DNA from: a virus
Taxonomy: Duplodnaviria > Caudoviricetes
Direction: 5' to 3' (one strand)
DNA length: 64,000 nucleotides
IMG/VR virus record: IMGVR_UViG_2716884858_000003
Location: 50,479 to 114,478 of that record
Shown here: one piece after another, positions 28,646 to 60,851 of the stretch
Layout: every line of letters starts with the position of its first letter
Position numbering within the stretch: position 1 is the stretch's first letter
Position numbers and translations under genes: made by a program
The notes under the pieces: model-generated
What the model was told of the DNA's origin: nothing
The model's database searches: none
Seen by the model: the letters and a program-made list of their open reading frames with translations, nothing else

Positions 28646-28706
28646 TAGTATTCCGTTTGATCGCTGGTTCAGGGCCGGATCTTCACGCGCATACCGCTGG
28701 AGATCC
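28646..28706 (+). promoter_or_regulatory. Late leader element (capsid)
   Basis: TAGTAT 28646; hairpin GAT-CG-CTGGTT-CAG-GGCCGG-ATC 28659-28681. Confidence 0.75.
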
Positions 28707-28709
28707 CGT

Positions 28710-30368
28710 ATGGACTTCGAGATTCCCGAGGACGTCACCGCTCTCGACGACGAGGCCCTGGCCCAGGCACTGGACGGCGCCCGCGCCGCCTTCGCCACCC
28801 TGTCCGGCCAGGACGTCATCGATGGCGACGCCATGGGCCGCATGCGCGCCCTGGCCGGGTGCGTCGAGGACATCCGTACCGAGCAGACCGCTCGCGTGGA
28901 GGCCGCCACCCAGGCCGCCGCCGAGATCGAGGCACTCGCCGCCCAGGTGCGTGGCGAGGAGGCCACCCCGCAGGCCCCGGCCGCCCCTGCTGCGGAGGGA
29001 GAGGAGCCGGCCGAGCCGGTCGCCGCAGCCACCGAGCAGCCCCCGGCCCCGGAGGCGCCGGCCGCCCCGGAGGCCACGGCGTCCGCCGTCGTCGTCCCGA
29101 CCCGCCCCGCGCTCAACCTGCGCGCCGTACGCCGCGCCCAGCCGCGCGTCCTGCCGGAGGCCCCGCCCCCGGGCACCACCATCACCGCGGCCGTGGACGT
29201 CCCCGGCTACACCCCCGGCTCGGACCTGGTCTTCGACGACGTGGTCAAGGGCATCAACTCCCGCGCCACCGCCCTCAAGACGGCCGGCGGCGGCGTGGGC
29301 CAGGTGATCAGCTATCACCACCCGTACCCGGCGGACACGATCGTCACGGACTCCAGCAGCGCGCCCGAGGGCACCACCGTGGCCATGGTCGCCTCCAGCC
29401 AGTCCCGGCTGCCCCAGGGCGACCTGGTCGCGTCCGGCGGCTGGTGTGCCCCGTCCGAGACGCTCTATGAACTGACGGACACGTCCTGCCCGGACATGCT
29501 GTGGGACGCCCCGGAGATCCAGCTGAGCCGGGGCGGCCTGCGCTACTACAAGCCGCTGTCCCTGGACGTCTCCCAGCTCACGTGGGTGCACACCGAGGCC
29601 GACGACATCGCCGGCAACACCAAGCCGTGTTTCCGCATCCCCTGCCCGGACCCGGTGGAGGTGCGCTGTGACGCGGTCGGCGTCTGCCTGGAGGCAGGCA
29701 TCCTGACCCAGCGTCATTTCCCGGAGCTCATCGCCTGGTACCTGCGCAACAGCATGGTGGCCCACGAGATCCGGCTGCGGCAGGTGCTGTTCCAGAAGGC
29801 GCTGGCGACGGCCACCCCGGTGACCATCCCAGCGTCCATGGCCGCCGTCTCCGCCGTGTTCGGCGCGGTCGCCCTCCAGGCCGCGGACATGATCGAGCGT
29901 CACAGCCTGTGCGACAGCACGGCGCTGGAGGTCGTGTTCCCGTGGTGGTCCAAGAACATGTTCCTGGCGGACCTGGCCAGGAGGAACGGCTGCTGCCCCT
30001 CCGAGGTGAGCGCCCAGGACGTGCAGGACCTGTTCAGCCCGCTGGGCGTGCGCATCCAGTGGGCGCGCGGCCTGGCCCCGGCCGTCCCCACCGACATCGG
30101 CGGCACCACCGCGGCCACCGACTGGCCGTCCACCATCCAGTTCCTCATGTACCCGGCCGGCTCCCTGGTCATCGGGCGCGGCGAGGACGTGAACCTGGGC
30201 GTAATTCACGACTCGACCAAGTTCAGCCGCAACGACTACACGGCCCTCTTCGCCGAAGAGTGCGTGGCGCTTGTTGACAGGTCCGTCGACACGCGCCTCG
30301 TGACCGTGCCCGTCTGCGCGTCCGGTGAGACCGGCGCCCAGACGCTGGTCGCCTGCCCGACCGCCTGA
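28710..30368 (+). CDS. Major capsid protein with N-terminal scaffold-like region (552 aa)
   Basis: LVASGGWCAPSETLYEL motif, acidic helical N-terminus plus PA linker. Confidence 0.88.
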   Translation: MDFEIPEDVTALDDEALAQALDGARAAFATLSGQDVIDGDAMGRMRALAGCVEDIRTEQTARVEAATQAAAEIEALAAQVRGEEATPQAPAAPAAEGEEPAEPVAAATEQPPAPEAPAAPEATASAVVVPTRPALNLRAVRRAQPRVLPEAPPPGTTITAAVDVPGYTPGSDLVFDDVVKGINSRATALKTAGGGVGQVISYHHPYPADTIVTDSSSAPEGTTVAMVASSQSRLPQGDLVASGGWCAPSETLYELTDTSCPDMLWDAPEIQLSRGGLRYYKPLSLDVSQLTWVHTEADDIAGNTKPCFRIPCPDPVEVRCDAVGVCLEAGILTQRHFPELIAWYLRNSMVAHEIRLRQVLFQKALATATPVTIPASMAAVSAVFGAVALQAADMIERHSLCDSTALEVVFPWWSKNMFLADLARRNGCCPSEVSAQDVQDLFSPLGVRIQWARGLAPAVPTDIGGTTAATDWPSTIQFLMYPAGSLVIGRGEDVNLGVIHDSTKFSRNDYTALFAEECVALVDRSVDTRLVTVPVCASGETGAQTLVACPTA

Positions 30369-30381
30369 CCCCCACACAGCA

Positions 30382-30412
30382 GTGCCGGGCCCCCTTCACG
30401 CGGGCCCGGCAC
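30382..30412. terminator. Hairpin between convergent capsid and HNH genes
   Basis: GTGCCGGGCCC/GGGCCCGGCAC. Confidence 0.65.
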
Positions 30413-30446
30413 GCCGCCACCGGAGGAGGTGAGGCAGGTGAACGCG

Positions 30447-31184
30447 TCAGCGCGTCAGCGGCACGCCGCAGTGGAACGGCCGGTCAGCGAACACGTCCCC
30501 GTACTTGCGGAGGCGCTGCTCGTGGCCGTCACACAGCGGCTCCCCGCCGTTGAGGACGACGTACGGCCTGCCGCACCCCTTCACGGAACAACCGTCGTCC
30601 ACCGGACGGCCGTTGCTGGAACGCTCCGCGCTCACGTTGACGGCGTGTGTCACGGCCTTGAGGTGGGCCGGGTTCACACACCGTCGGTGCGGGCACGTGG
30701 GGCCGCCTGCGCACTCCTTCGGGTCATGGCAGGCGTGATCTACCACCAGGCCAGGAGGGATGCTGCCGTGTTGCAGCGAGTAGGCGTAGCGGTGCGCCGG
30801 GGAGTGCAGGAAGCTCCCGTACCCGTGGACCGTGATGGTGCCCTCCCAGGGCCAGCACGCGTCCAGATCGCCGCCCTGGGTGTCGACCAGGGTCCAGAAG
30901 TCGGCGTTGAGATCGCCGGTGTAGTTGAACTGGCGCCGGAGCAGTTCCAGCGTTCCGTTGCGGTACAGCCGGGTGTAGTGCTTGCGGCACAGCCCCTTGG
31001 CGATCGAAGTGCTGCCGCACTCGTCAACCGAGCAGGGCGCGTTAGCCGCCTTGCGTGTGCGTACGGTCAGCGGGTCGCCGGTGCGCTGCCACCGGACGTA
31101 GTGCTTGTTACACCAGCTGCGGGCGATGGGCGGGCGCGGGCAGCGGGCTCCGTTCTCGACAGCGGAACAGGTAACGTCGGCCAA
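30447..31184 (-). CDS. HNH homing endonuclease with Cys/His zinc-binding repeats
   Basis: CWPWEG..AHRYAY..VDHAC..RRCVNPAHL..N; three C..C..CxxH modules. Confidence 0.88.
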   Translation of the reverse strand: MADVTCSAVENGARCPRPPIARSWCNKHYVRWQRTGDPLTVRTRKAANAPCSVDECGSTSIAKGLCRKHYTRLYRNGTLELLRRQFNYTGDLNADFWTLVDTQGGDLDACWPWEGTITVHGYGSFLHSPAHRYAYSLQHGSIPPGLVVDHACHDPKECAGGPTCPHRRCVNPAHLKAVTHAVNVSAERSSNGRPVDDGCSVKGCGRPYVVLNGGEPLCDGHEQRLRKYGDVFADRPFHCGVPLTR

Positions 31185-32625: not shown

Positions 32626-32628
32626 CGG

Positions 32629-43064: not shown

Positions 43065-43082
43065 CGGCCGCTCCTCGCGGCC

Positions 43083-43151
43083 TAGACTCGAACTGCACGT
43101 CGCTGGTTTAGGGCCGGACGCGACTCCTCCACCAGGAGCCCCCTCATGGCC
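43083..43151 (+). promoter_or_regulatory. Late leader element
   Basis: TAGACT 43083; CGT-CG-CTGGTT-TAG-GGCCGG-ACG 43098-43120. Confidence 0.75.
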
Positions 43152-45284: not shown

Positions 45285-45287
45285 AGC

Positions 45288-46047: not shown

Positions 46048-46115
46048 CCCAATGGCCACCAGTGCAGCCGCGCGGCGCCACGTCGCGCGGCTGCCGCGTA
46101 CCCAGGAGGTAAGGC

Positions 46116-46925: not shown

Positions 46926-46927
46926 TG

Positions 46928-47527: not shown

Positions 47528-47625
47528 GTCGACTCCTACTCAGTCGGCGTTGCCCCCGGGACGGCGCCCACCGCTGTCCTGGGGGTCTGCTATGTCGGGT
47601 TCGACCGTAACGGGAGGGCCTGACA

Positions 47626-48234
47626 ATGGCTTTGCAGGTCAACGCCGTCCAGGACGCGGCGGAGGCGGTGCTGGCATGCGTGTGCGCAGCTCTGCAGGAC
47701 GCGGCTGAAACGGTCGAGGGTCAGCGCGGGTGCCCGTGCCGCGCCTGCCTGGTCCCAGCGATGCCAGCCTGGGACTCCTGTGATGACCCGTGCAACGAGG
47801 CTCCGGCCGGCGGCGCGGGCGGCCAGTTGTCCGTCTCGGTCGCCCGGTTGTTCCCGTCCACGGAGTTCCCCACCCAGGACCGCACCCTGTCCGTCACCCA
47901 GGCGCGGGGCCGGCTCGCCTGTGCCGCGCCCGCGGCCATGGCGGTGGAGCTGGTGGTCACGCTGCTGCGCTGCGCCCCCACGTTCGATGTAGGCGGCTGC
48001 CCGCCGCCTTGCGATGCGCTGGGGGAGGCGGCGCGCATCCTGCATACGGACATGGTGGTCGTGCGCAACGCCGTGGAGTGCTGCCTGCCGACCACGGGCG
48101 AGCAGCGGCGCGGCCGGGTGGTGTTCGTCGGGGAGTCCCGCACGGTCGGCCCACAGGGCGGCTGCGTGGGGTTCGAGCAGCGCGTCACGGTGCAGCTGCC
48201 AGGCTGCGGATGCCCGCAGGAGGACACGCTATGA
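47626..48234 (+). CDS. Cys-rich tail completion/terminator-like protein
   Basis: GGQLSV..LLRCAP..GPQGGCVG; position. Confidence 0.6.
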   Translation: MALQVNAVQDAAEAVLACVCAALQDAAETVEGQRGCPCRACLVPAMPAWDSCDDPCNEAPAGGAGGQLSVSVARLFPSTEFPTQDRTLSVTQARGRLACAAPAAMAVELVVTLLRCAPTFDVGGCPPPCDALGEAARILHTDMVVVRNAVECCLPTTGEQRRGRVVFVGESRTVGPQGGCVGFEQRVTVQLPGCGCPQEDTL

Positions 48235-48608
48235 GCGTGGAGGTACGCATCGACCAGGGCGCCCTGCTGCGCCTGCTGCGGGCTCGTGGCGGGATCGCAC
48301 GGCGCAAGCTCCAGCAGAAGGTGGACCGCGTCGCCCGCATCGCGGAGGCGGAGGCCCCCGGGAGCATGGGCGACTACATCGAGACGGACGTCAGGGAGGG
48401 GCCGCGCGGCCTGGAGGGCGTGGTCACCTGCACCCACCCCAAGGCCCGCCTGGTCCTGGAGGGCACCAGGCCGCACCCCATCCGGCCTCGTCGGCGCAAC
48501 TTTCTGCGGTTCGAGGTCGGCGGCGACGTGGTGTTCACCAAGCTGGTCCGCCACCCCGGGACCAGGCCCAACAACTTCCTGGCCAGGGCGCTGCGCCTGG
48601 GGCGATGA
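48231..48608 (+). CDS. HK97 gp10-like neck protein
   Basis: EGTRPHPIRP..LRF..VRHPGTRPNNFL..AL. Confidence 0.7.
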   Translation: MSVEVRIDQGALLRLLRARGGIARRKLQQKVDRVARIAEAEAPGSMGDYIETDVREGPRGLEGVVTCTHPKARLVLEGTRPHPIRPRRRNFLRFEVGGDVVFTKLVRHPGTRPNNFLARALRLGR

Positions 48609-48629
48609 GGATATCGGCTCTACCGCACG

Positions 48630-49403
48630 TCACATTTCCAGAGCTTTTTGCGCCTCGCGAATGAAATCTCGGACTGCCCTGTCGAACGCGTCGAGCCCCC
48701 TAGAGGAGGGCGCCCAGCCTTGCTGGATGGGGGAGATGAGTGCTTCATAGTCCTGATCTGACAATCGAAGGCGACCGTTAATTTGCTCCATCTGTTGGAC
48801 TATTTCATTCGCTTCGTCGGGGATAATCCGACGGTTACTATTCGGGTGATACTCGGCCCTACGGGACATTACGCGCACGAGCTGTGAACTGAGGTCGCGG
48901 AGGCTGGCCGCGTCTGGCGAGTCCCGTGCCTGTTTCAAGTGGTGGCACACGCGAGTTGATCGCAGCCACTGCGGTTGCATCTTTGACAGGCTGTTCACTC
49001 TTATGTGGACCATGACTGCCGCTTTGGATACCGCCGCGGGTCCTTCGAGTTGCACCACGTTCAACTGCGTGTACGCCACGTGTTCTCGTTGACCTCGCGC
49101 CGAGCGATACTCTGTTAAATCGAGCGTTTCACCCAAAGGTGCGTCTGGGAAGGCGGAGATCGCTTGTTGCCAGTCGTTGATGGCAACGAGGAAGCTGACG
49201 TATGCGTCCCGCATAACGCCCCTTCGCCATTGTCTATGGGCTGCCAGTGCCTGCGAATTGACTGCGTCAAGTGCTGCGGTTGCCTGAGCGCTAGCTGCGT
49301 CAAGGGCAGCGCGCATCTGCCACCGGCCGACCAGGAGAGCTGTGGGCACGCTGACCGCGGCTACAGCGGCGGCCGCGATCGCTCCGACGCCTGCAAGATC
49401 CAT
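48630..49403 (-). CDS. Moron, N-terminal TM hypothetical protein, low GC
   Basis: Opposite strand, atypical composition; start MDLAG inferred. Confidence 0.65.
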   Translation of the reverse strand: MDLAGVGAIAAAAVAAVSVPTALLVGRWQMRAALDAASAQATAALDAVNSQALAAHRQWRRGVMRDAYVSFLVAINDWQQAISAFPDAPLGETLDLTEYRSARGQREHVAYTQLNVVQLEGPAAVSKAAVMVHIRVNSLSKMQPQWLRSTRVCHHLKQARDSPDAASLRDLSSQLVRVMSRRAEYHPNSNRRIIPDEANEIVQQMEQINGRLRLSDQDYEALISPIQQGWAPSSRGLDAFDRAVRDFIREAQKALEM

Positions 49404-49485
49404 GGGCCCAGCATGGCGTAACCACCGCTTTCCCCATCGGTGGTTTCGCAATTGCGCAACGCCCACCTGACGATGTGGCTCGGGC

Positions 49486-49554
49486 TACCCTGATCCTTAC
49501 GCCGACTGGTTGAGGGCCGGGCGAGGTGCGGGAGACGAGGACACACCCCGTGGC
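49486..49554 (+). promoter_or_regulatory. Late leader element
   Basis: TACCCT 49486; CGC-CGA-CTGGTT-GAG-GGCCGG-GCG 49500-49523. Confidence 0.7.
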
Positions 49555-50077
49555 ACAGAAGAACTTCGCTTTCAACACCGAACCTCACGTTGCCACCGTC
49601 AACGGCCATGACCTGCTGTTCCAGGCCGAAGTGATGGGCGATGAGTTCATGGACGCCTTCCAGGAGTTGAAGGACGCCCAGGCGGCGGCCTCCGGGATCG
49701 ACCTGGACGACCTGTCGACGCTGGACCCGGCCAAGCTGCGCGGCGCCGCCCGCGGCCTGCGCCTGTTCGTCGCCCGCCTCATGCTCCCGGAGAGTGCCCA
49801 GGAGTTCCTGGCCGTGGAGGTCGTCAAGGACGGCGTGCTGCTGTCCTCCCACCAGGACTGGGGCGAGGCGCAGCAGGCCGCGGACCAGACGGCGGGCGCG
49901 CGGGTGAAGTGGGCGATGCCCATGCCGGACCGCATCCTGGTCGCCCTCATGGAGTGGGTGACGGAGCTGTACGGAGGTGGGGCAGACAAGCGCCCTCCTA
50001 CGTCACGTGGCGGCTCTGCGAAAGCATCGCCGCGGGCTGGGAAGAGTGGTCCGGCGCGCTCGCGCTCGAAGGGGTAG
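49550..50077 (+). CDS. Tail assembly chaperone (G-like)
   Basis: Upstream of tape measure; ELYG..RPPT then low-complexity tail. Confidence 0.75.
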   Translation: MAQKNFAFNTEPHVATVNGHDLLFQAEVMGDEFMDAFQELKDAQAAASGIDLDDLSTLDPAKLRGAARGLRLFVARLMLPESAQEFLAVEVVKDGVLLSSHQDWGEAQQAADQTAGARVKWAMPMPDRILVALMEWVTELYGGGADKRPPTSRGGSAKASPRAGKSGPARSRSKG

Positions 50078-50328
50078 ACCTCCACGCCTGGCGACTGCGC
50101 ACCATGCTCGCCGCCGCCGAGGCCGCTATCGACGCGTCCGCCAAGGACGACCAGGAGCGGGCGCGCACCCGGGCCAAGCTGTACGCCCCGCCCCGGGGCC
50201 AGCGGCCCCCCGCGCGGTCGGCTGGGCCCGCAGCCAGCGGGCGGGGGATGAGCGTGGCCCAGGCCCAGGCGCTCATGGCCAGCGTGGCCGCCGAAGACGC
50301 CCAGGTCGCTGGCGGTCGTAGCGGATAG
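49993..50328 (+). CDS. Tail assembly chaperone T-like extension (-1 frame)
   Basis: Overlapping -1 frame PSYVTWRL..RAKLYAPP with no clear own start. Confidence 0.65.
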   Translation, partial: PSYVTWRLCESIAAGWEEWSGALALEGVDLHAWRLRTMLAAAEAAIDASAKDDQERARTRAKLYAPPRGQRPPARSAGPAASGRGMSVAQAQALMASVAAEDAQVAGGRSG

Positions 50329-50420
50329 TCTGGGATCACGGCAGGCCCCTCGTGGGGGCCGCCTCTCGCCGACTGGTTAAGGGCCGGGCACCACCACTCA
50401 CTAGTGGGGGCCGCCCGGTG
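50326..50420 (+). promoter_or_regulatory. Late leader element (tape measure)
   Basis: TAGTCT 50326; bulged hairpin 50340-50363; GC-CGA-CTGGTT-AAG-GGCCGG-GC 50368-50389. Confidence 0.7.
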
Positions 50421-53400
50421 GCCGGCGAGGACGAGGATTTCGGCTCGGCATCCGTCCGCATCGTTCTGGACGACGCCGACGCCGTGGCGGACGCCCGGGA
50501 TCTTGGGCTCCGCATCAAGCGGGCCCTGGACCGCGCCACCCGGGACGCCGGCGAGCAGATCCGGGCCAACATCCAGCGCGGCCTGCGGGACGTGTCGGTC
50601 GCCGTCCAGGTGACCCCGGACATGTCCCAGCTCCGGGACAGGATCGAACGAGCGGCGTTCTTCGCCACCGCGGGCGCGGAGCTGCGGGTGCCGGTCCTGC
50701 CGGACCTGGACGACTTCGTCACGCGCATCCGGGCGCTGCTGGCGGGCGAGGAGTTCGAGGTCCGGGTCATCCCGAACCTGGACGACTTCGACGCCCGCAT
50801 TCGGGCGCACCGGGCCCCCACCATCACGGTGGACGTCGAGTTCGACAACGACGGCCTGGTGCGCGCCCTGTCGGGCCTGGGCAAGGTGGCCGGCCGCATC
50901 GGCGGCGTCCTGCTCAACACCCTCAAGTTCGCCGGTATCGGTATCGCCGCCGCCGGGGCCGCGGCAGGGATCGGCAAGTTCGTTGCCGCGCTGGCCCCGG
51001 CGGCCGGGCTCATCGCCGCGGGCCCCGCGGTCATCCTCGGATTTCAGTCCGCCCTGGGCGGCCTCAAGCTCGCGCTGTCCGGCGTCTCCGACGCGTTCAA
51101 GTCGGCGCTGACGGACAACGCGGAGAAGTTCGAGAAGTCGCTAGAGAAGCTCTCGCCCAAGGCCCAGGCGGCGGCGCGCGAGGTCCGCGCCCTCAAGCCC
51201 GCGTTCGAGGACCTGCGCAACACCGTTCAAGACGGGTTCTTCGCCCAGATCGAGGGGCAGATCACCAGCACCGCCAAAGCTCTGGGCGGGCCCCTCAAGA
51301 CCGGGCTGACCGGCATCTCCACCGCGTGGGGCGTGGCGGCCAAGAACGCCCTGGGGTACGTGAAGGGCTCCCAGGGCGTGGCCAACGTCCGCTCCATCCT
51401 GGGCGGTGCGCAGGCGGCGACCGAGGGCCTTTCCCAGACCACCAACCGGCTCACCGCCGGCCTGCTCCAGGTGGCCGCTGTCGTCTCGGACCGGTTCGGC
51501 GCAGAGCTGTCCGGCGGCATCGCCAACCTGGGCCAGCGGATCGGGGACTTCCTCCAGCGGATCGCGTCCGGCGGCCAGGCCGTGGCGTGGGTGGACGGCG
51601 CTCTCAACACCCTGGCCCGTCTCGGCGACATCGCCGGGAACGTCAAGGGCATCTTTACCGGGCTGTTCCAGGCCGGGGAGGGAGCCGGCGCCGGGGTGCT
51701 CAACAACCTCCAGACCGTCACCAAGGCCGTCTCGGAGTTCGTCAACTCCACCCAGGGCCAGACCGCCCTGGGGAACGTCTTCGCCACCGTCGGGCAGGTG
51801 GCCCAGCAACTCGGGCCGATCATCTCTGCCCTGGTGTCGAATCTCGGGCAGATCGCGCCGGCCGTAGCGCCGATCCTGGCCGGGTTCGGCCCTGTGCTGG
51901 TGGGGGTGATCAGCCAGCTCGGTGCCGCCGCCCAGGGGGCGCTGCCGCAACTGTCGGTCGCTCTGCAGCAGATCGGTGCCGCCGCCGTCTCCTTGGGCCC
52001 TGCCCTGCCGCCGCTTGCTGCTGCGGCGGCTGCCTTGGCCCGCTCCGCGGCTGACCTGGTCGTCGCCCTGGCCCCCGCGGTCACGTTGCTCGTCCAGTTG
52101 GTCGCCCCGGTGATCAACCTCGCGGCGCCGTTGATCGTCGCCGGTGCTGCGGTGTTCGGCCTGGTCAAGGTGATCAAGAGCGCCATTGCCATCTTCCGGC
52201 TGCTCCAAGGGGTCTGGCTCGCGCTGAACGCGGCGTTCGTGGCCTCGCCGATCGGCGTCATCATCGTGGCCGTCATCGGCCTGGTGGCGGCCATCTACCT
52301 GCTGTACCAGCGGTTCGCGATCGTCCGCACGGTGGTCGATGCCGTGGGCCGCGCACTGCGGGACGGCTTCCTGGCAGCGGTCGGGTTCGTGAAGTCCGCG
52401 GCCTCCCAGATCGCTGGCTTCTTCGTCGGCGCCTTCAACTCGGCCAAGTCGGCGGTGTCGTCCGGGATCGATGCCGTGGTCGGGTTCTTCACTGGCTTGC
52501 CAGGCAAGATCACTTCCGGGCTGTCGTCGCTGGGTTCCACCACCGGCCAGTTCTTCGTCAGTGCGTTCGAGACCGCCAAGGCCGGGCTGACGACCGCCAC
52601 TCAGGCCGTGGTCGACTTCTTCGTGGCGCTGCCTGGCCGGATCGTGGCCGCCCTGGTCGCGCTGCCCGGGCTGCTGCTCGGGGCCTTCACCAGCGCCGTC
52701 GCGTTTTTGATCATCGGCCTGCTGACCGTTGTCGCCGGGATCGTGTTCGTCTTCACCGAACTGCCCGGCCGGATCTACAACGCCCTGGTCGGTCTGGGTC
52801 AGTTCCTGATCACCGCCTTTGTGGCCGGGTTCAACGCCGTGACGTCCACGGTGTCCGACTGGATCTCGGCCACGGTCGCGTTCTTCCAGGCGCTGCCAGG
52901 CCGGGTGTACTCCGCGCTGGTCTCCATCGGCTCCTTCCTGCTGCGCGCCTTCACAGCCGGGTTCAACGCCACCCGCTCCGCCGTGTCCGGCTGGATCTCC
53001 TCCACCGTCGGGTTCTTCCGAGCCCTGCCCGGCCAGGTCTCCGGCGCGCTGGCGTCCCTGGGCTCGTTCCTGCTGCGGAACTTCACCAGCGCGTTCAACT
53101 CCGCACGGTCCGGGATCACCTCTTTCATCTCGTCCGCCGTGGGGTTCTTCCGGGCCCTGCCCGGCCGAGTCGCCAGCTCCCTGGCCTCCCTGCCCGGGCG
53201 GATCGCCTCCGCGTTCACCAGCGCCGCCGGCCGGGCGCGCACGGCGGTGTCCGGGCTGATCTCCGGGGTGGTCGGCCTCTTCCGCGGCCTGCCCGGCGCC
53301 ATCCTCGGCGCCATCGGCAACATCGGCGGCCAGATCATCGCCAAGGTCAAGTCCGGTATCCCGTCCAGCGTCCGCAAGTACCTGCCGTTCGCCAAGGGCG

Positions 53401-54884
53401 GCATCGTGTACGGGCCCACCCATGCCCTCATCGGTGAGGCCGGGCCCGAGGTCGTCATCCCGCTGACCAACCCCAAGCGCGCCGCCGAGCTCGCCCATCA
53501 GTCCGGCCTGCTCGGCATCCTGGCCAGCCAGACCCGCGGCCTGGCCGCGGCGGCGGCCGCGACGACGAGCAGCAGCGGCGCCCAAGTGGGCGGCGCCGTG
53601 TCCACGCTGCGCTCCCTGCTCGCCGGCATCGGCAGCCTGCTGGACAACGTGGGCGCCAACGTCGTGCAGGGCATGGTCGACGGCATCCGCAACAACGCCG
53701 GCCTGGTCGCCACCGCCGCCACCGAGATGGCCGACACCGCGGCGGTCGCCGCCCGGAACACCCTGGAGATCCACAGCCCCAGCAAGGTTTTCACCAAGAT
53801 CGGCCGGGACGTGGGCCGCGGTTTCGTGGCCGGCCTGACCGGCACTGCCTCCCAGATCAAGAGCACCACGGAGAAGCTGGTCCGTGACATCCAGAACGCT
53901 TTCTCCGGGAAGAAGACCCGGCTGGATGACCGCCTGGTGGCGATGCTCGACGCCGGGAACAAGCGCCTCACCACCCTGGCCGCCCAGCGCGATGCCCTGG
54001 CCAAGAAGATCGCGGACGCGCAGAAGTTCGCCGCGGACACCACCAGCCAGGCGTTGCAGGCGTTCTCCCTCCAGAACCTGTCCCAGGGTCTGGCCGACGG
54101 CCAGGCGCTCACCGCCAAGACCCTGACGGCCAGCCTTCAGGGCGCGGTGGACCAGGTGAAGCGGTTCTCTGCCCAGCTCAACAACCTGGCCGCCCGGGGC
54201 CTGCGTAAGGACCTGCTCCAGCAGCTCGTGGGCCTGGGTCCCCAGCAGGGCGCGGAGCTCGCCACCGCCCTGGCCTCCGCCACCAAGGACCAGTTGAAGC
54301 GGCTTAACAGTGTCCAGGCGGAGCTGACCAAGGCATCCGGCACTCTCGGCAACACCTCCGCCGACGTCTTGTTCGACGCTGGGAAGCAGGCCGGTAAGGG
54401 GTTCCTCACCGGGTTGCAGGGCCAGCGCAAGAGCATTGAAAAGTTGATGCTCGACATCGCCAAGGGGATGCAGAGCGCCATCCGTACGGCGCTCAAGATC
54501 CACAGTCCCTCGCTCGTGATGCGGCGCATCGGCGAGTACACGGGCGCCGGCCTGGAGCTCGGCCTGGTGCAGCGCATGGCCGGGATCATGCGCGCGTCCA
54601 CGGCGGCGGCCCGCTCGATGGTGGACGCGGTCGCCGGACAGTTCGGCCTGCTGCCCGGGCGGGTCTCCTCCTCGCTCGGCGCGGTGGGCGACCTGGGCGC
54701 GGGCGTGGTGCCACTGACCCGGGCGCAGCGCGCCCGCCAGGCCGGGGCCGCGGAGGCCGCAGGAGGCGGCCGGTTCGGGTCCGGAACGACCATCAACAAC
54801 CACTTCGAGATCCGGGAGGTGGGCGACGGGCACGTGACCGCCCACCGCGTCGTCAACCGGCTCGTGTACGCGGCGGGATTGTGA
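50418..54884 (+). CDS. Tape measure protein
   Basis: Long Ala/Gly helical protein, FF.ALPG repeats, FAKGG..GEAGPE, two IHSPS motifs; GTG 50418 inferred. Confidence 0.92.
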   Translation: MAGEDEDFGSASVRIVLDDADAVADARDLGLRIKRALDRATRDAGEQIRANIQRGLRDVSVAVQVTPDMSQLRDRIERAAFFATAGAELRVPVLPDLDDFVTRIRALLAGEEFEVRVIPNLDDFDARIRAHRAPTITVDVEFDNDGLVRALSGLGKVAGRIGGVLLNTLKFAGIGIAAAGAAAGIGKFVAALAPAAGLIAAGPAVILGFQSALGGLKLALSGVSDAFKSALTDNAEKFEKSLEKLSPKAQAAAREVRALKPAFEDLRNTVQDGFFAQIEGQITSTAKALGGPLKTGLTGISTAWGVAAKNALGYVKGSQGVANVRSILGGAQAATEGLSQTTNRLTAGLLQVAAVVSDRFGAELSGGIANLGQRIGDFLQRIASGGQAVAWVDGALNTLARLGDIAGNVKGIFTGLFQAGEGAGAGVLNNLQTVTKAVSEFVNSTQGQTALGNVFATVGQVAQQLGPIISALVSNLGQIAPAVAPILAGFGPVLVGVISQLGAAAQGALPQLSVALQQIGAAAVSLGPALPPLAAAAAALARSAADLVVALAPAVTLLVQLVAPVINLAAPLIVAGAAVFGLVKVIKSAIAIFRLLQGVWLALNAAFVASPIGVIIVAVIGLVAAIYLLYQRFAIVRTVVDAVGRALRDGFLAAVGFVKSAASQIAGFFVGAFNSAKSAVSSGIDAVVGFFTGLPGKITSGLSSLGSTTGQFFVSAFETAKAGLTTATQAVVDFFVALPGRIVAALVALPGLLLGAFTSAVAFLIIGLLTVVAGIVFVFTELPGRIYNALVGLGQFLITAFVAGFNAVTSTVSDWISATVAFFQALPGRVYSALVSIGSFLLRAFTAGFNATRSAVSGWISSTVGFFRALPGQVSGALASLGSFLLRNFTSAFNSARSGITSFISSAVGFFRALPGRVASSLASLPGRIASAFTSAAGRARTAVSGLISGVVGLFRGLPGAILGAIGNIGGQIIAKVKSGIPSSVRKYLPFAKGGIVYGPTHALIGEAGPEVVIPLTNPKRAAELAHQSGLLGILASQTRGLAAAAAATTSSSGAQVGGAVSTLRSLLAGIGSLLDNVGANVVQGMVDGIRNNAGLVATAATEMADTAAVAARNTLEIHSPSKVFTKIGRDVGRGFVAGLTGTASQIKSTTEKLVRDIQNAFSGKKTRLDDRLVAMLDAGNKRLTTLAAQRDALAKKIADAQKFAADTTSQALQAFSLQNLSQGLADGQALTAKTLTASLQGAVDQVKRFSAQLNNLAARGLRKDLLQQLVGLGPQQGAELATALASATKDQLKRLNSVQAELTKASGTLGNTSADVLFDAGKQAGKGFLTGLQGQRKSIEKLMLDIAKGMQSAIRTALKIHSPSLVMRRIGEYTGAGLELGLVQRMAGIMRASTAAARSMVDAVAGQFGLLPGRVSSSLGAVGDLGAGVVPLTRAQRARQAGAAEAAGGGRFGSGTTINNHFEIREVGDGHVTAHRVVNRLVYAAGL

Positions 54885-54891
54885 GGGGCTG

Positions 54892-56211
54892 ATGACGGCC
54901 GAGTGGTACATGGAGTACGGCGGCGTCGAGATCGTGAACCATACGAGGCTCGACCAGTACCTGGAAACGGTGGGCTCCCCGCTGGACACCGGCGGCGGCT
55001 GCGGGTGCCCCACCTTCACCAACGAGGTGCTGGACCAACTGCCCCACACGACACCGGATGACGCGGACAACCCTGCGCCCTGGTACGACCCGGACGTGCC
55101 GGAGTCCAAGGAGTTCGCCGGCGTCATGGTGCTGGACGTCGCCGGCCTGGACGACTACCCCGTGCAGCGCACCGTCACCGGCGGGATCGCAGGCGGCTGC
55201 GCCATCGGCCCCGCGCGGGCCCTGCCGCGCACCATCACCGTGACCGCGATCCTGCTCGGGTCCACCTGCTGCGGCGTGGAGTACGGCCTCCAGTTCCTCG
55301 CCCAGGCCCTCCAGGGATGCGCGGGCGGGGACTGTGAGGGGGACTGCCTGGTCGTGTACGCCTGCTGTCCCGGAGGCGGCCTGACCCCGGCGGAGTTCAA
55401 CCGGCGGCACCGGCGCACGCTGCGCCGTGTCGCCCTCGTGGAGGGCCCCCGAGTCACGGCGCGGGCCGGGACGGGCTGCTCGACGGGGACGTGCCAGTCC
55501 GGGGCGGACATCCTCACCGTGGAATGGGTGATGACCGCCGCGGTGCCGTGGCTGTATACGGACCCCCTGCCCGTCATGGAGGTCACCCCGCCCATGGACC
55601 TGGACGGGTCCTGCGTGGAGTGGTGCCTGCACCCGGCCGGGGACGCGGGCTGCCCGGGCGGCTGCAAGTTCGCCGCCTGCGTGGACCCCACCGCGGCGTG
55701 CGCGGACACCCGCTGCCTCCCGGAGGCCCCACCCCTGCCCGGTGCTCCGCTTTCCACCTGCTTCTGCTTGCCGTTGGCGACGGAGCGCGCCTGCTACCCG
55801 ATGGACCTCACCGGCCGGCCGAACTGGTCCACGGACCTGCCCGTCATCACGGTGCGGTCCGGGTCGACGGAGCTGCGCAACCTCACCATCGCCATCTACG
55901 AGAGCGGCGAGGCGGGCATGACGTGCGACCAGGTCGCAGACTTCAAGCGGTGCACGCCGGTCAACTACTTCCACGTGGCCTACGTGCCGGCCGGAGGCGC
56001 CGTCACCCTGGACGGCCAGACCGGCCGGTCCACCGTGGAGTGCGGCGGCACCTGCGAGTCCAGCCCGGACGTGTACGGCCTGGACGGCATGCCGGTGACC
56101 TTCCAGCCCCTGGACTGCTCGACGTACTGCATCTGCCTGGAAACCGACCTGCAGAGCCCACCCGCGCTTGACGCCCTGGTCACCCTCAACGTCTCGGGCA
56201 GGGGGCGGTAA
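54892..56211 (+). CDS. Distal tail/minor tail protein, Cys-rich
   Basis: Follows tape measure; GGVEIVN..APWYDP; 29 Cys in 439 aa by manual count. Confidence 0.75.
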   Translation: MTAEWYMEYGGVEIVNHTRLDQYLETVGSPLDTGGGCGCPTFTNEVLDQLPHTTPDDADNPAPWYDPDVPESKEFAGVMVLDVAGLDDYPVQRTVTGGIAGGCAIGPARALPRTITVTAILLGSTCCGVEYGLQFLAQALQGCAGGDCEGDCLVVYACCPGGGLTPAEFNRRHRRTLRRVALVEGPRVTARAGTGCSTGTCQSGADILTVEWVMTAAVPWLYTDPLPVMEVTPPMDLDGSCVEWCLHPAGDAGCPGGCKFAACVDPTAACADTRCLPEAPPLPGAPLSTCFCLPLATERACYPMDLTGRPNWSTDLPVITVRSGSTELRNLTIAIYESGEAGMTCDQVADFKRCTPVNYFHVAYVPAGGAVTLDGQTGRSTVECGGTCESSPDVYGLDGMPVTFQPLDCSTYCICLETDLQSPPALDALVTLNVSGRGR

Positions 56212-57251
56212 TGGCGGTCGCCGGCTGCGGCACGCACCAGGCCATGGTGCTGGACAGGAGCGGTGCCACGGTGGCCGTCGCCAACGTGCTCACGTCCGTG
56301 GAGTGGACCCGCGTCCTGGACGGCGTGTCGACGGCCCAGGCCACCATCAACCCGGACGGGGACTGCTGCGGTCGTCTCGGGCGTATCTCCACGTGGCGCT
56401 CCCGCCTGGTCATCTTCCGTGACGGCCAGTACGTGTGGGACGGGCCGATCACCGGCATCACCTGGTCCCTTGGCCAGGTGGAGATCCGCGCCCAGGACGC
56501 CCTGGCGTGGCTCGGGGACCGCGTGCCGCACGAGAACAAGACCTTCACCAACGCGGACCTGTCCGAGATCGCCGAGTGGCTGATCGAGGACGGCTACCGG
56601 CCGGATGACCCGGGCCACACGGTGGAGGTGGTGGGCAAGGCCGGGGTGTCCGGCTCCCGCTCCTACAGCGCCGGTTTCGGCCAGACCCTGGACCACCTGG
56701 GCCAGTTGGCCGAGGCCGGTATCGACTACACGGCCATCGGCTCCAAGATCCTGCTGCTCCCGGAAACGCACCTGGTGCCGGTGGGCCGCCTGTCGGACAC
56801 GGACCTGCCGGACGGCCTGGAGGTGAGCGAGGACGGCACCGGCCTGGCCACCCGCTGGATCGTCGCTGGCAGTGAGGGCAGCGGCGTTATCGGCACGGCC
56901 GGAGGCATCGATCCGTACTACGGGCTGCACGAGCGGTACGTGGAACAGACGGAGATCACCGACCAGGCATCAGCGGACCAGGCGGCCGGGGCGCGGCAGC
57001 GGGCGTCTGGCACGGTGCCGGTGGTGATCGACACCCAGCAGGTCACCATCAGCCCGGAGGCCGCTGTCAACGTGCCTTCCCTTGTGCCCGGCTGGTGCCT
57101 GGACGTCACGTCGGCGTCCACCTGCCGCACCGTGCGCCAGCGGCTGAAGATCACCGGCCTGCGGGTGGCGGAGACCGGCGGGAACGACAACAACCCAGGT
57201 TCCGAGAGCGTGCAGGTGCAGGTAGCGGCGAGCGGAGCGGAGAACCCCTGA
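56211..57251 (+). CDS. Minor tail (hub, Gp37-like) protein
   Basis: VEWTRVLD..FRDG..VWDGPI..LVPGW. Confidence 0.75.
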   Translation: MAVAGCGTHQAMVLDRSGATVAVANVLTSVEWTRVLDGVSTAQATINPDGDCCGRLGRISTWRSRLVIFRDGQYVWDGPITGITWSLGQVEIRAQDALAWLGDRVPHENKTFTNADLSEIAEWLIEDGYRPDDPGHTVEVVGKAGVSGSRSYSAGFGQTLDHLGQLAEAGIDYTAIGSKILLLPETHLVPVGRLSDTDLPDGLEVSEDGTGLATRWIVAGSEGSGVIGTAGGIDPYYGLHERYVEQTEITDQASADQAAGARQRASGTVPVVIDTQQVTISPEAAVNVPSLVPGWCLDVTSASTCRTVRQRLKITGLRVAETGGNDNNPGSESVQVQVAASGAENP

Positions 57252-57718
57252 TGGCCATTCGGACCTCCCCCTCCCGGAGCCTGCCCGGTAACCCGCTGGG
57301 CGGGGTGCTGCGCCACCTGGACGCCCGCTCGAGGATCGCCGGCCGCACCCGCACCACGGGCCTGACGTTCGAGCAGGAAGCACCCCCGGCCGAGGCGCCG
57401 CCCGTGCGCGCGCCTGCATGGCCTGCTGCCGCCGTGCTGACCACCGGCGAGGACGGGCGGGCCCGGTGGGCGTTCCCGGCGCCGTACGGAGCTGCCCCGG
57501 CCGTCTCGGCGCTCGCCCTGGACCCGGCGCCCGAGGACGACGACCGCACGGTGCTCGTCGCCCTGGAGGAGGCCACCACCTGGTGCGTAGTCGTGCGGGT
57601 GTGGCGCACCAGGGGGCGGCGCGGTGCGGGGGTGGCGGAGCCGGCCGGGGCCGGGGTGCGTGTGCACGTGACCGCCCAGGACGTCGCTGCGGCACCGCCC
57701 AACCCCGAGGCAAACTAG
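57251..57718 (+). CDS. Hypothetical phage tail-region protein
   Basis: TGATG coupling. Confidence 0.6.
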   Translation: MAIRTSPSRSLPGNPLGGVLRHLDARSRIAGRTRTTGLTFEQEAPPAEAPPVRAPAWPAAAVLTTGEDGRARWAFPAPYGAAPAVSALALDPAPEDDDRTVLVALEEATTWCVVVRVWRTRGRRGAGVAEPAGAGVRVHVTAQDVAAAPPNPEAN

Positions 57719-57793
57719 GGCGCAACATGCGCAACCCCCGCGAAGGTGGGCACCAGGCGCGGGGGTTGCACTGCCGACTGATTGGGAGTCGAC

Positions 57794-58567
57794 GTGACCC
57801 ACGATAGGGGCCGTGCGCCCGAGGAGGCGCCCGAGCGCGCCTGCGCCATCTGCGGGACGAGCCTGGAGGGCTACCGGAGCCACGCCCGGGTGTGCTCCAG
57901 CAAGGCGTGCCGCAACGCCGCGGCGAGCAAGCTGCCACGGCTGTGGAAGACCGCCAGGCCGAAGCAGTGCACCGTGGTCGAGGACGGCGTGAGGTGCACC
58001 AGGACGGCCACCAAGCGGATGACCACCGACGTGTGGTGCTCGATCCACGACGGCCGCGCCCTCCGTACCGGCAGCCCGCTCGTCCTCAAGGCAGTCCGAC
58101 GACCGCAAGGCGAGGTGCGCGCCCTGCTGGACCAGGCAGCCGCACACGACGGCGACGGGTGTTTCCTTGTGCCCGGCCCTGACGGTGGGCGGCTGTCCGT
58201 CTCGTACCAGGGCCGACCGATGACCGCCGCCCGGGCCGTGTGGATGATCCGCCACGGGGACCCGGGCGACCGGCACGTCCTCCACACCTGCCACCGCGGC
58301 GACGAGGGGTGCGCCAGCGTCGGCCACCTGTACCTGGGCGACCACGAGCAGAACATGGTGGACATGATCGAGTCCGGGCGCAGCACACACGGCGAGCGGC
58401 ACGCCTTCCACCAGCTGACGGAGGAACAGGTGCGGGACATCGTCCGGCGGGCTCGCGCGGGCGAGAAGCAGCGGGTGCTCGCCGCGGAGTTCGGCATCTC
58501 GCAGACGCACGTCTCGAACCTGAAGAACGGCAAGGCGTGGTGGCGCATCACTAGCATGGGCCAGTAG
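57794..58567 (+). CDS. HNH endonuclease with C-terminal HTH, paralogue of 46928
   Basis: VLHTCHRGDEGCASVGHLYLGDHEQN; start GTG 57794 from shared leader. Confidence 0.88.
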   Translation: MTHDRGRAPEEAPERACAICGTSLEGYRSHARVCSSKACRNAAASKLPRLWKTARPKQCTVVEDGVRCTRTATKRMTTDVWCSIHDGRALRTGSPLVLKAVRRPQGEVRALLDQAAAHDGDGCFLVPGPDGGRLSVSYQGRPMTAARAVWMIRHGDPGDRHVLHTCHRGDEGCASVGHLYLGDHEQNMVDMIESGRSTHGERHAFHQLTEEQVRDIVRRARAGEKQRVLAAEFGISQTHVSNLKNGKAWWRITSMGQ

Positions 58568-58616
58568 TCGCTGGTTCAGGGCCGGACTCACTTCGCACCC
58601 GAGGGGTGAGTCCGGT
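58552..58616 (+). promoter_or_regulatory. Late leader element
   Basis: TAGCAT 58552; AGT-CG-CTGGTT-CAG-GGCCGG-ACT 58566-58588. Confidence 0.75.
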
Positions 58617-59337
58617 AGCAGCAGTTTGTGTAGATGACAGCTATTTCGAGGTGGGCGATGACGGGCGGCTGACGCTCGTCCCCGGGCAGCAGGGCCTGCG
58701 TAACGTCCTGTACTTCAAGACTCCGGGGGCTGACACCTTCAAGAAGGCCGACTATCCATGGCTCGCGCGGGTGTTCGTCATGGTTCAGGCCGGTGGGGGA
58801 GGCGCGGCCGGCGCCCGCGCGAACGCCAACCAGTTGGTGGCGCAGCCGGGGGGCTCGGGTGGCGGGTACGCGGAGCGGCTGATCGCGGCGTCCGCGCTCG
58901 GCGCCACGGAGGCCATCGTCGTCGGCGACGCCGGCATCGCGGGCACGCCGACAGGGGACGGCGGCCCGGGCGGTAACTCCTCCTTCGGCGGCCTGTGCAC
59001 CGCGCTGGGCGGCAACCCGGGCCAGGCCGTCATGCCGTCCGGGGCGACGCCCATGTGCCTGTCGGGTACCTCCGGGCCGCTTGCCGGGGTGGGCGATATG
59101 GCGCAGGGCGGGGGCCCCGGGGGCGGAGCCCTGCGGATCAGCGGCGGTGAGGGGCAGAGCGGGGAGGGCGGGGAGTCCCGGCTGGGCCACGGCGGATGGC
59201 AGCGCTCCTCCTCGGGCGGCGGTGGGGCGGGCCGCGGCTACGGCGGCGGCGCGGCCGGCGCCCTGGCCAGGGACGGCGACAGTGTGAACGGCACCCCTGG
59301 CGGTGCGGGCATCGTCATCGTGTACCTGTACGGCTGA
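58606..59337 (+). CDS. Glycine-rich minor tail protein
   Basis: VQAGGGG..GGSGGGYAE..GYGGGAAG..GGAGIVIV. Confidence 0.8.
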   Translation: MSPVAAVCVDDSYFEVGDDGRLTLVPGQQGLRNVLYFKTPGADTFKKADYPWLARVFVMVQAGGGGAAGARANANQLVAQPGGSGGGYAERLIAASALGATEAIVVGDAGIAGTPTGDGGPGGNSSFGGLCTALGGNPGQAVMPSGATPMCLSGTSGPLAGVGDMAQGGGPGGGALRISGGEGQSGEGGESRLGHGGWQRSSSGGGGAGRGYGGGAAGALARDGDSVNGTPGGAGIVIVYLYG

Positions 59338-59341
59338 CCCC

Positions 59342-59474
59342 GTGTCCTGGACGCGTCTGGACACCCGTGTCCGGACAGTGTCCGTGCAGGTCAGCCGTGT
59401 CCGGTGCTCATGTCCCGGATGGTGTCCGCGCGTTGTCCGGACATCGGCCCGGACTTGTCCGCGATGGTGTCCGG
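59342..59474 (-). repeat. Phased CCGGACAC-like array, intergenic, inverted relative to 27196-27313
   Basis: About 9 (G/T/A)TGTCC copies, many 11-13 bp apart; GCAGGTCA at 59386. Confidence 0.75.
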
Positions 59475-59486
59475 GCAGGCCGTCGA

Positions 59487-59557
59487 TAGACTCGACGGTG
59501 CGCCGCTGGTTTAGGTCCGGGCCACGATCAACCCCCAAGGACGGTGGGATCAGTGGC
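59487..59557 (+). promoter_or_regulatory. Late leader element
   Basis: TAGACT 59487; GC-CG-CTGGTT-TAG-GTCCGG-GC 59502-59522. Confidence 0.7.
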
Positions 59558-60389
59558 GAGGTGCGGATGCGCCGGAGGCGCGTGCAACTGCGCGGTGGAG
59601 TCCGGGACCAACGTCAGCGTCAGCGGTTCCGGGTCGGCGGCCAACCCGTACGTCATCAGCGCGGCGATTCCATGCGCGGACGTGAGGGCGTGTCTGTCCG
59701 CCGGGCCCGGCATCAACCTGGACCAGGCCACCGGCGCGATTTCCGCGGACCTGTCCGGGCAGGCAGGCAACAACGTGACGATCGGGCCGGACGGCGGCCT
59801 GTACGTGCCCACGGCCGGCGGCGCGGTGCTCACGGGCTGCGGCCTGGTCGGCAACGGCACCGCGAGCGCCCCCGTCAAGGCAAAGACCGGGACGTGGCCG
59901 TACCCGTGCAGCCTCGACACGTTCGGCGGAGTGGTGGCGTGCGACAGCAACGGCGTCCTGCGGGGCGAGCCGCGCGGCAGGCTCTCGTTCGCGTCCTACT
60001 TCGACAACCGGGACTATCCCGACGTGCCGGTCCCGGCCGCCCAGAACACGGTGCTGGACAACTTCACGGTCAATGTGACCAACCCCGACACGTGCCGCAC
60101 CGCCATGGTGCTGACGGAGCGGGAGGTGGACGTGTATGTCGTGCTGCCAGCCGGGGCCGCCGCGGGCACCGGGCACAGCAATGACGAGATGTACTACATG
60201 CGCAACAGCGGCACGAGCACCATCGTTGGCACGCACGTCCAGACCACGAAGTTCCTGGCGGAGCCGGCCCTGCTCGCCCCCGGCGCGACGATGCCGGTGA
60301 CGCTGACCGCGACCGGTGGCCGCGGCGCGGGCGGCGCCTACTACTACGGCATCAACTTTGTCCTCCGGACCATGATCATCAGCCTGTGA
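59553..60389 (+). CDS. Fibre-like protein, paralogue of 43146
   Basis: MARCGCAGGACNC..GSAANPY..CADVRAC..G.DGGLY. Confidence 0.75.
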   Translation: MARCGCAGGACNCAVESGTNVSVSGSGSAANPYVISAAIPCADVRACLSAGPGINLDQATGAISADLSGQAGNNVTIGPDGGLYVPTAGGAVLTGCGLVGNGTASAPVKAKTGTWPYPCSLDTFGGVVACDSNGVLRGEPRGRLSFASYFDNRDYPDVPVPAAQNTVLDNFTVNVTNPDTCRTAMVLTEREVDVYVVLPAGAAAGTGHSNDEMYYMRNSGTSTIVGTHVQTTKFLAEPALLAPGATMPVTLTATGGRGAGGAYYYGINFVLRTMIISL

Positions 60390-60400
60390 GGAGCGCGACT

Positions 60401-60784
60401 ATGTCCCTGGGACTTCCCGGTCTGCCCGAGTGGCCGTGGCCTGACGGCGATGACCCGACGACGCCGCCCAAGCCGACGACGCATTACGTCCAGTACCCGG
60501 ACGGCCACATCAGCCAGATCACCGCCACCGGCGCGGAACCCGTACTCGCCGAGGGCGCCAAGCTGCTGACGCAGGAGCAGTACGAGGAGACGCGCGCCCA
60601 GATGCTGGAGGCGCATGAGGCGCGCCTGACGGAGCTCCAGGCCGGGGAGGAGGCAGCGCAGCTCCAGCAGTACAAGGACCTGCGGGCGGTGGGCCTGCCG
60701 GAGGCGACCGCGCGGTCCTTGTCCGGCTACACCGGCCAGGCCGTGGCCGGCGACGCCCAAGGCGCTGCACAGACGGCCGGTTAG
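60401..60784 (+). CDS. Small phage protein following fibre gene
   Basis: SD GAGGAG; YPDG..GAKLLTQEQY then coiled coil. Confidence 0.7.
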   Translation: MSLGLPGLPEWPWPDGDDPTTPPKPTTHYVQYPDGHISQITATGAEPVLAEGAKLLTQEQYEETRAQMLEAHEARLTELQAGEEAAQLQQYKDLRAVGLPEATARSLSGYTGQAVAGDAQGAAQTAG

Positions 60785-60851
60785 ACTCCTCAGCAGTCGC
60801 TGGTTCAGGGCCGGACGAGGTACCCCGCTACGGGAGTGATCCGCCTTGTCC
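60782..60851 (+). promoter_or_regulatory. Late leader element (lysis)
   Basis: TAGACT 60782; GT-CG-CTGGTT-CAG-GGCCGG-AC 60796-60816. Confidence 0.75.

Follow-up and report, generated by a model that had tools for sequence, protein, structure and literature searches.

Overlapping hairpins in the late-gene leaders of a Streptomyces prophage group, a candidate translational switch

Among the closest described systems is the mom gene of phage Mu. As described in PMC6483171, a short hairpin lies directly 5' of a translation-inhibition hairpin that holds the mom start codon; the proposal is that the Com factor, whose recognition motif in the hairpin loop is CC(N)2-3GAG, binds the short hairpin and so melts the inhibitory one. 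Here we describe a related arrangement in a 64,000-nt stretch of DNA (the window) that forms the terminal 64 kb of the provirus record IMGVR_UViG_2716884858_000003 (IMG/VR; 114,478 bp, rated complete). Eight late genes of the window carry leaders with a conserved 15-mer, CTGGTTNAGGGCCGG, the core of an RNA hairpin that we term H1, whose 3' arm can also serve as the base of a second, gene-specific hairpin, H2, that buries the ribosome site. As at mom, the first hairpin is 5'-adjacent to one holding the Shine-Dalgarno (SD) sequence or start codon, both hairpins here being supported by covariation; the mom system differs in that it serves one gene, as against eight in this phage and 3-10 in its relatives, in that the present two helices share bases, and in that the loop of H1, UUNWG or a variant GNUA, does not fit the Com motif.

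The nearest named start-associated repeats in actinophages are the SAS and ESAS of cluster K mycobacteriophages (PMC3203893), asymmetric repeats that precede many start codons in one orientation and for which a role in translation has been suggested. SAS is a 13-bp sequence, GGGATAGGAGCCC, that lies 3-7 bp from the start, includes the SD and is located in the non-structural arm, and the ESAS repeats do not support RNA pairing (PMC3203893). They share with the present element the use of one-orientation repeats ahead of actinophage start codons, and differ from H1 in placement, in sequence and in the lack of RNA pairing. A search of the window for the SAS 13-mer gave one match, with two mismatches and inside the capsid gene, where 2.07 would be expected by chance.

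The nut (boxB) and put RNAs of lambdoid phages act on transcription elongation from one or two sites. Together with TAR of HIV they resemble H1 as small hairpins placed right after a transcription start, here a predicted one, that serve as a handle for a regulator; H1 differs in being tied to the start codon by 24-35 nt and in sharing bases with a helix over the ribosome-binding site (RBS). Stoperators are short, asymmetric, one-orientation intergenic sites, spread over the genome, that act as DNA sites for an immunity repressor. The present element is likewise short, asymmetric, fixed in orientation relative to transcription and placed between genes; in contrast to stoperators it is confined to late leaders (9/9) and shows RNA-type covariation in which U-G pairs occur on the sense strand only. 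The comparison with TAR is made in PMC6483171, and stoperators are named for L5-like cluster A mycobacteriophages in PMC3203893.

H1, a conserved hairpin of late leaders

With up to two mismatches allowed, the 15-mer occurs nine times in the window, exclusively on the + strand, a number reached in 0 of 100 shuffles. All nine copies sit in late leaders, that of the major tail gene holding a tandem pair, and the remaining 50 kb of the provirus, its early half, has none. The closest isolated relative is TurkishDelight, a temperate Streptomyces phage whose capsid gene is 77.6% identical at the DNA level; it carries a counterpart, CTGGTTNTGGGCCGG, ahead of the same genes, in tandem before its major tail and tape-measure genes. 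Further relatives were gathered with the chaperone protein as handle, giving 14 IMG/VR loci and 35 prophage loci (49 in all), almost all in Streptomyces genomes, with one record each from Kitasatospora and Embleya. Together with the provirus record and TurkishDelight, these loci bring the number of copies to 257, and the 49 related loci contain a single reverse-strand match. Counted from the end of the motif, the start codon follows after 24-35 nt in 228 copies, out of 250 for which a start was called. Of the 30 exact copies present in five complete host genomes, 28 lie near the prophage. The element is almost invariant among phages whose chaperone proteins are merely 45-55% identical.

YDN12 and other cluster BG phages are less closely related than TurkishDelight. 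The lytic YDN12 (L176) has a variant H1 at three genes only, in the form of a diverged hairpin, CTGGCGTTAGGCCGG, before the capsid and major tail genes and another variant before the tape-measure gene (element coordinates 13642, 16840 and about 4180); since a lytic phage carries it, the element is not bound to lysogeny. In TurkishDelight (L001, 30551-30592) the annotated tailspike start, 30557, falls within H1, and an ATG at 30590, opening the reading frame MARCGCAGD, matches the motif-to-start spacing of the family.

The 15-mer forms the core of a hairpin of 21-22 nt, with conservation reaching from -4 to +17. If the 15-mer, CTGGTTNWGGGCCGG, is numbered 1-15, the pairs of H1 are -4:17, -3:16, -2:15, 1:14, 3:13, 4:12 and 5:10. 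G-1 and U2 are bulged, and the loop, of four bases, takes the UUNWG or the GNUA form across all copies; each of the nine window copies forms all seven pairs. A register with pairs 1:15 and 2:14 had been considered and was superseded by the covariation at 1:14 and in the lower stem. Across 211 distinct contexts, pair -3:16 is C-G in 181, U-A in 22 and U-G in 8 and is never unpaired, pair -2:15 is C-G in 167, U-G in 32, U-A in 7 and unpaired in 5, and pair -4:17 forms in 98%, against 44% for the adjacent control -5:18. At pair 1:14, C-G has become A-U in four leaders (major tail leaders of L144 and L168, capsid leaders of L154 and L169) and U-A in one (tape-measure leader of L164), and in each of these phages the remaining copies are canonical. 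Six sites have G..A in place of U..G in the loop, in YDN12 together with a change of U5 to C.

These counts were complemented by an ungapped alignment fitted to no structure, in which 150 of 192 eligible contexts were placed, namely all 24 variants and 126 randomly drawn canonical copies, with the extra-A forms excluded. The proportion of paired cells in this alignment is 99.5%, and sliding the partners lowers it to 15-60%; 34 cells show double changes, against 4.2 in shuffles, and the covariation score is reached by none of 500 shuffles; pair 5:10 is U-G in 145 of the 150. RNAalifold recovered the lower stem independently in the major tail group. An Rfam 15 scan of the 64-kb window, RNA thermometers and phage RNAs included, gave no match at gathering score, and at E <=1 over 43000-61000 the sole match was an unrelated miRNA at 54078-54133; in the literature searched, which covered few subscription journals, no description of the motif surfaced. 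On these alignments H1 can be regarded as a well-supported RNA motif, one that matches no Rfam family.

Upstream of the element, a hexamer of the form TAnnnT (mostly TAnnCT) lies within -32 to -5 of the motif in 203 of 247 distinct contexts, compared with 1.6% of background windows, and in 189 contexts it ends 10-14 nt before the motif. The hexamer may be a -10 promoter element, in which case the transcript would begin with H1. The constant spacing from this box, the single orientation and the essentially phage-confined distribution would also fit an element that acted as DNA, as part of a late promoter or as a stoperator-type operator, the RNA helices being incidental. We consider this improbable. 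The U-G pairs tolerated at -2:15 (32 contexts), -3:16 (8) and 5:10 (145/150) would be A-C mismatches on the other strand, and compensatory changes appear at single sites while other sites in the same phages stay canonical. The lack of copies in the early half of the provirus and the near-invariance between phages with such diverged chaperone proteins also speak against a DNA role. Since U-G pairs are tolerated and one strand is strictly used, the patterns point to H1 acting as RNA and not as duplex DNA.

Gene-specific H2 hairpins and their overlap with H1

H2 is a leader-specific hairpin that begins inside the 3' arm of H1 (positions 14-18), and holds the SD in its own 3' arm; in most leaders 0-6 nt separate its end from the start codon. 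In the 33 distinct tape-measure leaders it is a long hairpin that begins in the final bases of H1 and extends as far as the base preceding the GTG, with stems that vary between phages. With a covariance model built on these leaders, a set of 53 was realigned that included 14 from other gene groups. In the resulting alignment 88.8% of cells pair, a value that falls to 77.5% for shuffles (0/500) and to 37-55% on sliding, and 9 of 13 pairs show compensatory changes, figures whose force is lessened by the fitting of the alignment to the covariance model, which favours pairing, and by the kinship that many of the aligned sequences share. MAFFT followed by RNAalifold on the tape-measure, chaperone and major-tail groups returned only the outer stem or H1, the inner stems being misaligned.

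A linker-shuffle test needs no alignment, as the motif and the ribosome site are held fixed and the linker alone is shuffled. Its readout was the RBS opening cost, the free energy required to melt all pairing between -15 and +3 of the start codon, and it was applied to 216 distinct leaders of the family. Six of the eight larger gene groups are occluded in excess of their linker shuffles: the tape measure (n=33; native 23.7 vs shuffled 14.2 kcal/mol), capsid (n=11; 19.8 vs 12.1), minor tail group 1 (n=19; 19.3 vs 14.0), major tail (n=36; 16.5 vs 11.8), Cys-rich fibre genes (n=36; 15.9 vs 11.8) and minor tail group 2 (n=10; 15.5 vs 11.5). Taken individually, 46% of the 216 leaders stand at <=0.05 against their linker shuffles. 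The chaperone group (n=41; 8.9 vs 9.2 kcal/mol) and the 58606-type group (n=26; 11.5 vs 10.7) show no excess.

That the anti-SD helices are chance folds of the kind that any leader of 70% G+C would produce, roughly the composition of the window, was already disfavoured and can be judged very improbable, even though the window taken alone gives it some footing. Only one of its eight leaders folds with a z-score below -2, and two (capsid and 43146) beat linker shuffles at <=0.05, so the shuffle-folding check proposed in a preliminary description of this DNA is weak on this window, and by the criterion given there the single genome does not suffice for the claim; an excess over chance emerges across the family, in the six groups named. 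Crude gene calls on the provirus likewise give the non-motif genes a mean opening cost of 11.1 kcal/mol, with only the capsid and tape-measure leaders reaching the 95th percentile, in a comparison that set the chaperone start at 49541 where the real GTG is 49550. The family-level shuffle tests and the covariation stand against chance, as does a comparison in TurkishDelight with deposited starts, where six motif genes average 17.0 kcal/mol and 56 other genes, of similar G+C and with an upstream gap of >=40 nt, average 8.2 (Mann-Whitney p 9e-5); a seventh motif gene was misclassified there, its annotated start being within H1.

The two hairpins meet at positions 14-17, which can pair with the 5' flank to give H1 or, as the base of H2, with the bases that directly precede the start; because the bottom pairs of H2 use the 3' arm of H1, full H2 and H1 are mutually exclusive. 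In all 45 rows of the tape-measure set, position 15 has the base preceding the start codon as its partner; in the single row with A at position 15 this partner is U, as is position -2. When leaders are grouped by the base at position 16, the region from -12 to +3 of the start contains a perfect complement to positions 14-18 in 32% of the A class (19 leaders) and in 38% of the G class (188 leaders), compared with 6-7% for a complement to the other class's sequence, with G-U allowed. The preliminary description had proposed that the 3' arm of the conserved hairpin is shared with the base of a gene-specific helix burying the SD or start codon, and the covariation of H1 and H2, together with the class-matched complements, bears this out. 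H1, H2 and their overlap are thus, with high confidence, real RNA features under selection.

Folding energies describe the competition further. In the energy model full H2 is favoured, and forming the five-pair core of H1 costs ~10 kcal/mol in full leaders; the core was used because the probability of the exact structure with its bulged register is too low to inform. When H1 is imposed, the mean RBS opening cost falls from 15.7 to 9.6 kcal/mol and native leaders (9.66) become indistinguishable from linker shuffles (9.53) in every group, whereas without H1 imposed full H2 makes the ribosome site ~4 kcal/mol harder to open than in the shuffled controls. The excess vanishes with H1 imposed, and therefore all of the selected occlusion needs the 3' arm of H1 to be free.

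The leaders of the window and their genomic setting

The siphovirus virion module spans 20.9-62 kb of the window. It encodes the portal, a MuF/protease fusion, the major capsid protein (ATG 28710), the major tail protein (ATG 45370), the tail assembly chaperone (GTG 49550), the tape measure protein (GTG 50418), minor tail proteins, a fibre-assembly-like protein (GTG 58606) and the endolysin. The boxes, hairpins and helices of the leaders described next are on the + strand. Each leader was folded against 200 dinucleotide shuffles, the counts in brackets being the shuffles that fold as well, and the fraction of linker shuffles reaching the native opening cost follows.

The capsid leader has a -10-like box, TAGTAT, at 28646-28651, 12 nt before the 15-mer, an H1 at 28660-28680 with 7/7 pairs, and an H2 at 28677-28706 whose 9-bp arms (28677-28685 and 28698-28706) share 28677-28680 with H1 and hold the SD, GGAGA at 28699-28703, in the 3' arm (z -1.80, 12/200; 0.00). 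The leader of the 43146 gene, Cys-rich and tail fibre-like, has TAGACT at 43083-43088, H1 at 43099-43119, a helix of GGCCG 43112-43116 with TGGCC 43147-43151 that covers ATG 43146, and an SD helix of CTCCT 43124-43128 with AGGAG 43134-43138 (z -0.85, 38/200; 0.02). At the major tail gene, TAGACT at 45288-45293 precedes the tandem pair, formed by an upstream variant H1 at 45300-45320, with C at position 5 and a UUCG loop, and a downstream H1 at 45326-45346; H2 spans 45340-45369, from GCCG 45340-45343 to CGGC 45366-45369 immediately before the ATG, and encloses the SD helix GCTTCCTG 45345-45352 with TAGGAGGC 45357-45364 (z -0.70, 44/200; 0.15).

In the chaperone leader, with TACCCT at 49486-49491, H1 takes a form with one extra A (49501-49522), and an occluding H2 is absent; the site opens for 6.5 kcal/mol (z +0.99, 171/200; 0.87). 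The preliminary description had named this leader its weakest case, rightly, as it hides nothing. The tape-measure leader has TAGTCT at 50326-50331, 41 nt before the 15-mer, its TAG doubling as the stop codon of the upstream frame, H1 at 50368-50389, and an H2 at 50383-50419 that runs from the H1 3' arm to the GTG with an SD-like GGGGG in its 3' arm, the helix first proposed there having the arms 50383-50389 and 50413-50419 (z -1.41, 18/200; 0.12). The 58606 gene has TAGCAT at 58552-58557, H1 at 58567-58587 and a 14-bp H2 at 58581-58616, with arms 58581-58594 and 58603-58616, that contains the GTG and shares 58581-58587 with H1 (z -3.62, 1/200; 0.08); this 14-bp helix is lineage-specific and recurs in two close relatives, L140 and L141, whose gene likewise begins VSP at a GTG within the helix.

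The 59553 gene, whose start was set by the VARCGCA N-termini of relatives, has TAGACT at 59487-59492, H1 at 59502-59522 with T at position 11, and a helix of GCCAC-GATC 59521-59529 with GATC-A-GTGGC 59548-59557 that covers GTG 59553 and is absent from the minimum-energy fold (z -1.08, 28/200; 0.33). The 215-nt gap before its -10 box holds, at 59338-59486, a cluster of GTGTCCGG-like repeats, exact at 59367, 59397 and 59467 and degenerate in the further copies; window-wide the exact word is not enriched (13 vs 8.3 expected). Several H1-led tail genes, the 43146 and 59553 genes among them, encode Cys-rich N-termini, for example MAKCCGVQPCNC and VARCGCAGGACNC, with LSDCGCSRRCSC in relatives. The last leader, described earlier as that of lysis, has TAGACT at 60782-60787, H1 at 60796-60816 and a helix of GGACGAGG 60813-60820 with CCTTGTCC 60844-60851 that covers TTG 60846 (z -0.84, 36/200; 0.73). 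The open reading frame (ORF) that starts at this TTG, in the region 60836-60898, is what is left, 16 codons long, of a Cys-rich fibre-type gene retained at full length in relatives, and because its TGA overlaps ATG 60896 of the endolysin frame (TGATG), the sequence suggests that the endolysin is now translationally coupled to the remnant.

As to the helices first proposed for these leaders, the five arm pairs given with coordinates are all fully complementary when G-U is counted, and the two given as words (43146 and 59553) can be read in the sequence; five of the seven appear in minimum-energy folds, the tape-measure and 59553 leaders adopting other pairings. The wider statement that each leader has such a mutually exclusive helix is upheld for six of the eight larger gene groups and fails for the chaperone and 58606-type groups, as well as for the lysis leader, which belongs to the remnant of another gene. 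G+C-rich hairpins lie just 5' of several -10 boxes (43066-43082, 45262-45285, 49421-49448 and 50344-50366), in the tape-measure leader between the box and H1, and could be terminators dividing the late transcription units.

Elsewhere in the window, three IS110-family transposase genes stand in a row on the - strand (437-1816, 1954-3198 and 3517-4761), adjoined by a tRNA-Met gene (5085-5162). Between the packaging and portal genes, 5517-18772 is taken up by two giant divergent ORFs, one of 2059 aa with a concanavalin-like lectin domain at its C-terminus and one of 2245 aa with an RHS repeat and a weak C-terminal Fic-like match, below cut-off; since TurkishDelight is without a counterpart, the pair looks like cargo. 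In the provirus outside the window, genes for QueD-type, radical-SAM-type and GTP cyclohydrolase I-type enzymes (L179, 5431-10567) come directly before the terminase, whose homologue of 883 aa probably carries an intein, given the LAGLIDADG domain inside it. A 99-aa ORF (L177, 11670-11969) matches the Acb2/Tad1 hairpin domain at 25.6 bits, below the cut-off of 27, and could be an anti-defence sponge.

A switch or a tag on late messengers

Each of the eight leaders may constitute a two-hairpin RNA module on a late mRNA, one that would be OFF at equilibrium and ON for as long as H1 is held, either by an H1-binding factor of phage or host origin or transiently, H1 being transcribed first. Such an architecture would work like that of Com and mom, extended to a set of virion genes. 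That the leaders form a translational switch for virion genes is the best of the explanations considered and, in our estimate, an evenly balanced proposition. Because covariation maintains a helix that is disfavoured at equilibrium, the model suggests that H1 is held by something or acts in the nascent RNA. The earlier proposal that late messengers are OFF by default holds as far as the energy model goes, in which the occluded form is favoured by ~10 kcal/mol and H1 restores access.

It is tempting to go one step further and to envisage a trans-acting late-translation activator, a phage protein or a hijacked host factor, that would bind the 5' H1 of every virion-gene mRNA, hold H1 shut and thereby unzip the base of the RBS helix. 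This step is tentative, and we would sooner lean against it than for it. The analogy with Com and mom drawn in the preliminary description is sustained in architecture and stops short of the factor, the Com loop motif being absent from H1 and the Com zinc ribbon (PF10122) being found in none of three records (provirus, TurkishDelight and YDN12) at E <=1. Nor did a Pfam scan of 20 provirus ORFs yield an RNA-binding candidate; the annotations among these ORFs were transposases, one RHS/Fic-like and one lectin-fold protein, queuosine-type enzymes, a single HTH protein and a weak Acb2/Tad1-like match. A tblastn comparison of the provirus with TurkishDelight and YDN12 found, outside the virion genes, only an HNH endonuclease and one small protein common to all three, the latter a membrane protein by its sequence.

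Besides these searches and the fitted alignment of H2, several observations weigh against the switch and the activator. The overlap of H1 and H2 amounts to merely 3-5 nt, and within the window alone most leaders are not better than shuffles. The mean probability of the H1 core is 0.02 in full leaders and 0.34 when it is folded alone, and since it is low even alone, the ON state needs something further. RNAalifold on the chaperone leaders recovers H1 only, 41 distinct leaders keeping it without a competing helix, and because these and the 58606-type leaders retain H1 without excess occlusion, H1 has a role besides unmasking.

A rival explanation gives that role first place. H1 would be a general 5' tag of late transcripts, and H2 would fix the translation level of each gene without any switching; the tag could protect from 5'-end-dependent decay or, in the manner of nut and put, load a factor onto RNA polymerase. 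The unoccluded chaperone leaders fit this explanation, as do the predicted transcript start, which the 10-14 nt spacer would place a few nt from the base of H1, the tandem H1 at the major tail gene here and at two genes in TurkishDelight, and the variant H1 at only three genes of YDN12. We nevertheless rate it as rather unlikely, for the base of H2 is built from the H1 3' arm and tracks its class (32-38% own against 6-7% cross), and all of the excess RBS occlusion depends on that arm. No U-run follows H2, which also argues against the tag, and for this reason H2 is not a terminator awaiting antitermination.

The control of late genes in phages is normally framed as a matter of transcription, through activators, sigma factors and antiterminators. 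In the leaders described here, one RNA tag is wired to the ribosome site of a whole series of virion genes, in Streptomyces prophages that form a widespread group, and a variant of the tag is present in the isolated phages TurkishDelight and YDN12. Should the leaders prove to be a switch, they would represent a regulon-scale version of a mechanism known from the single mom gene of Mu, and would offer a portable, phage-specific translational control element for Streptomyces engineering. Should an activator exist, the synthesis of capsid, tail, tape-measure and fibre proteins would be licensed after transcription as one regulon, by what would amount to a translational counterpart of the late transcription activators.

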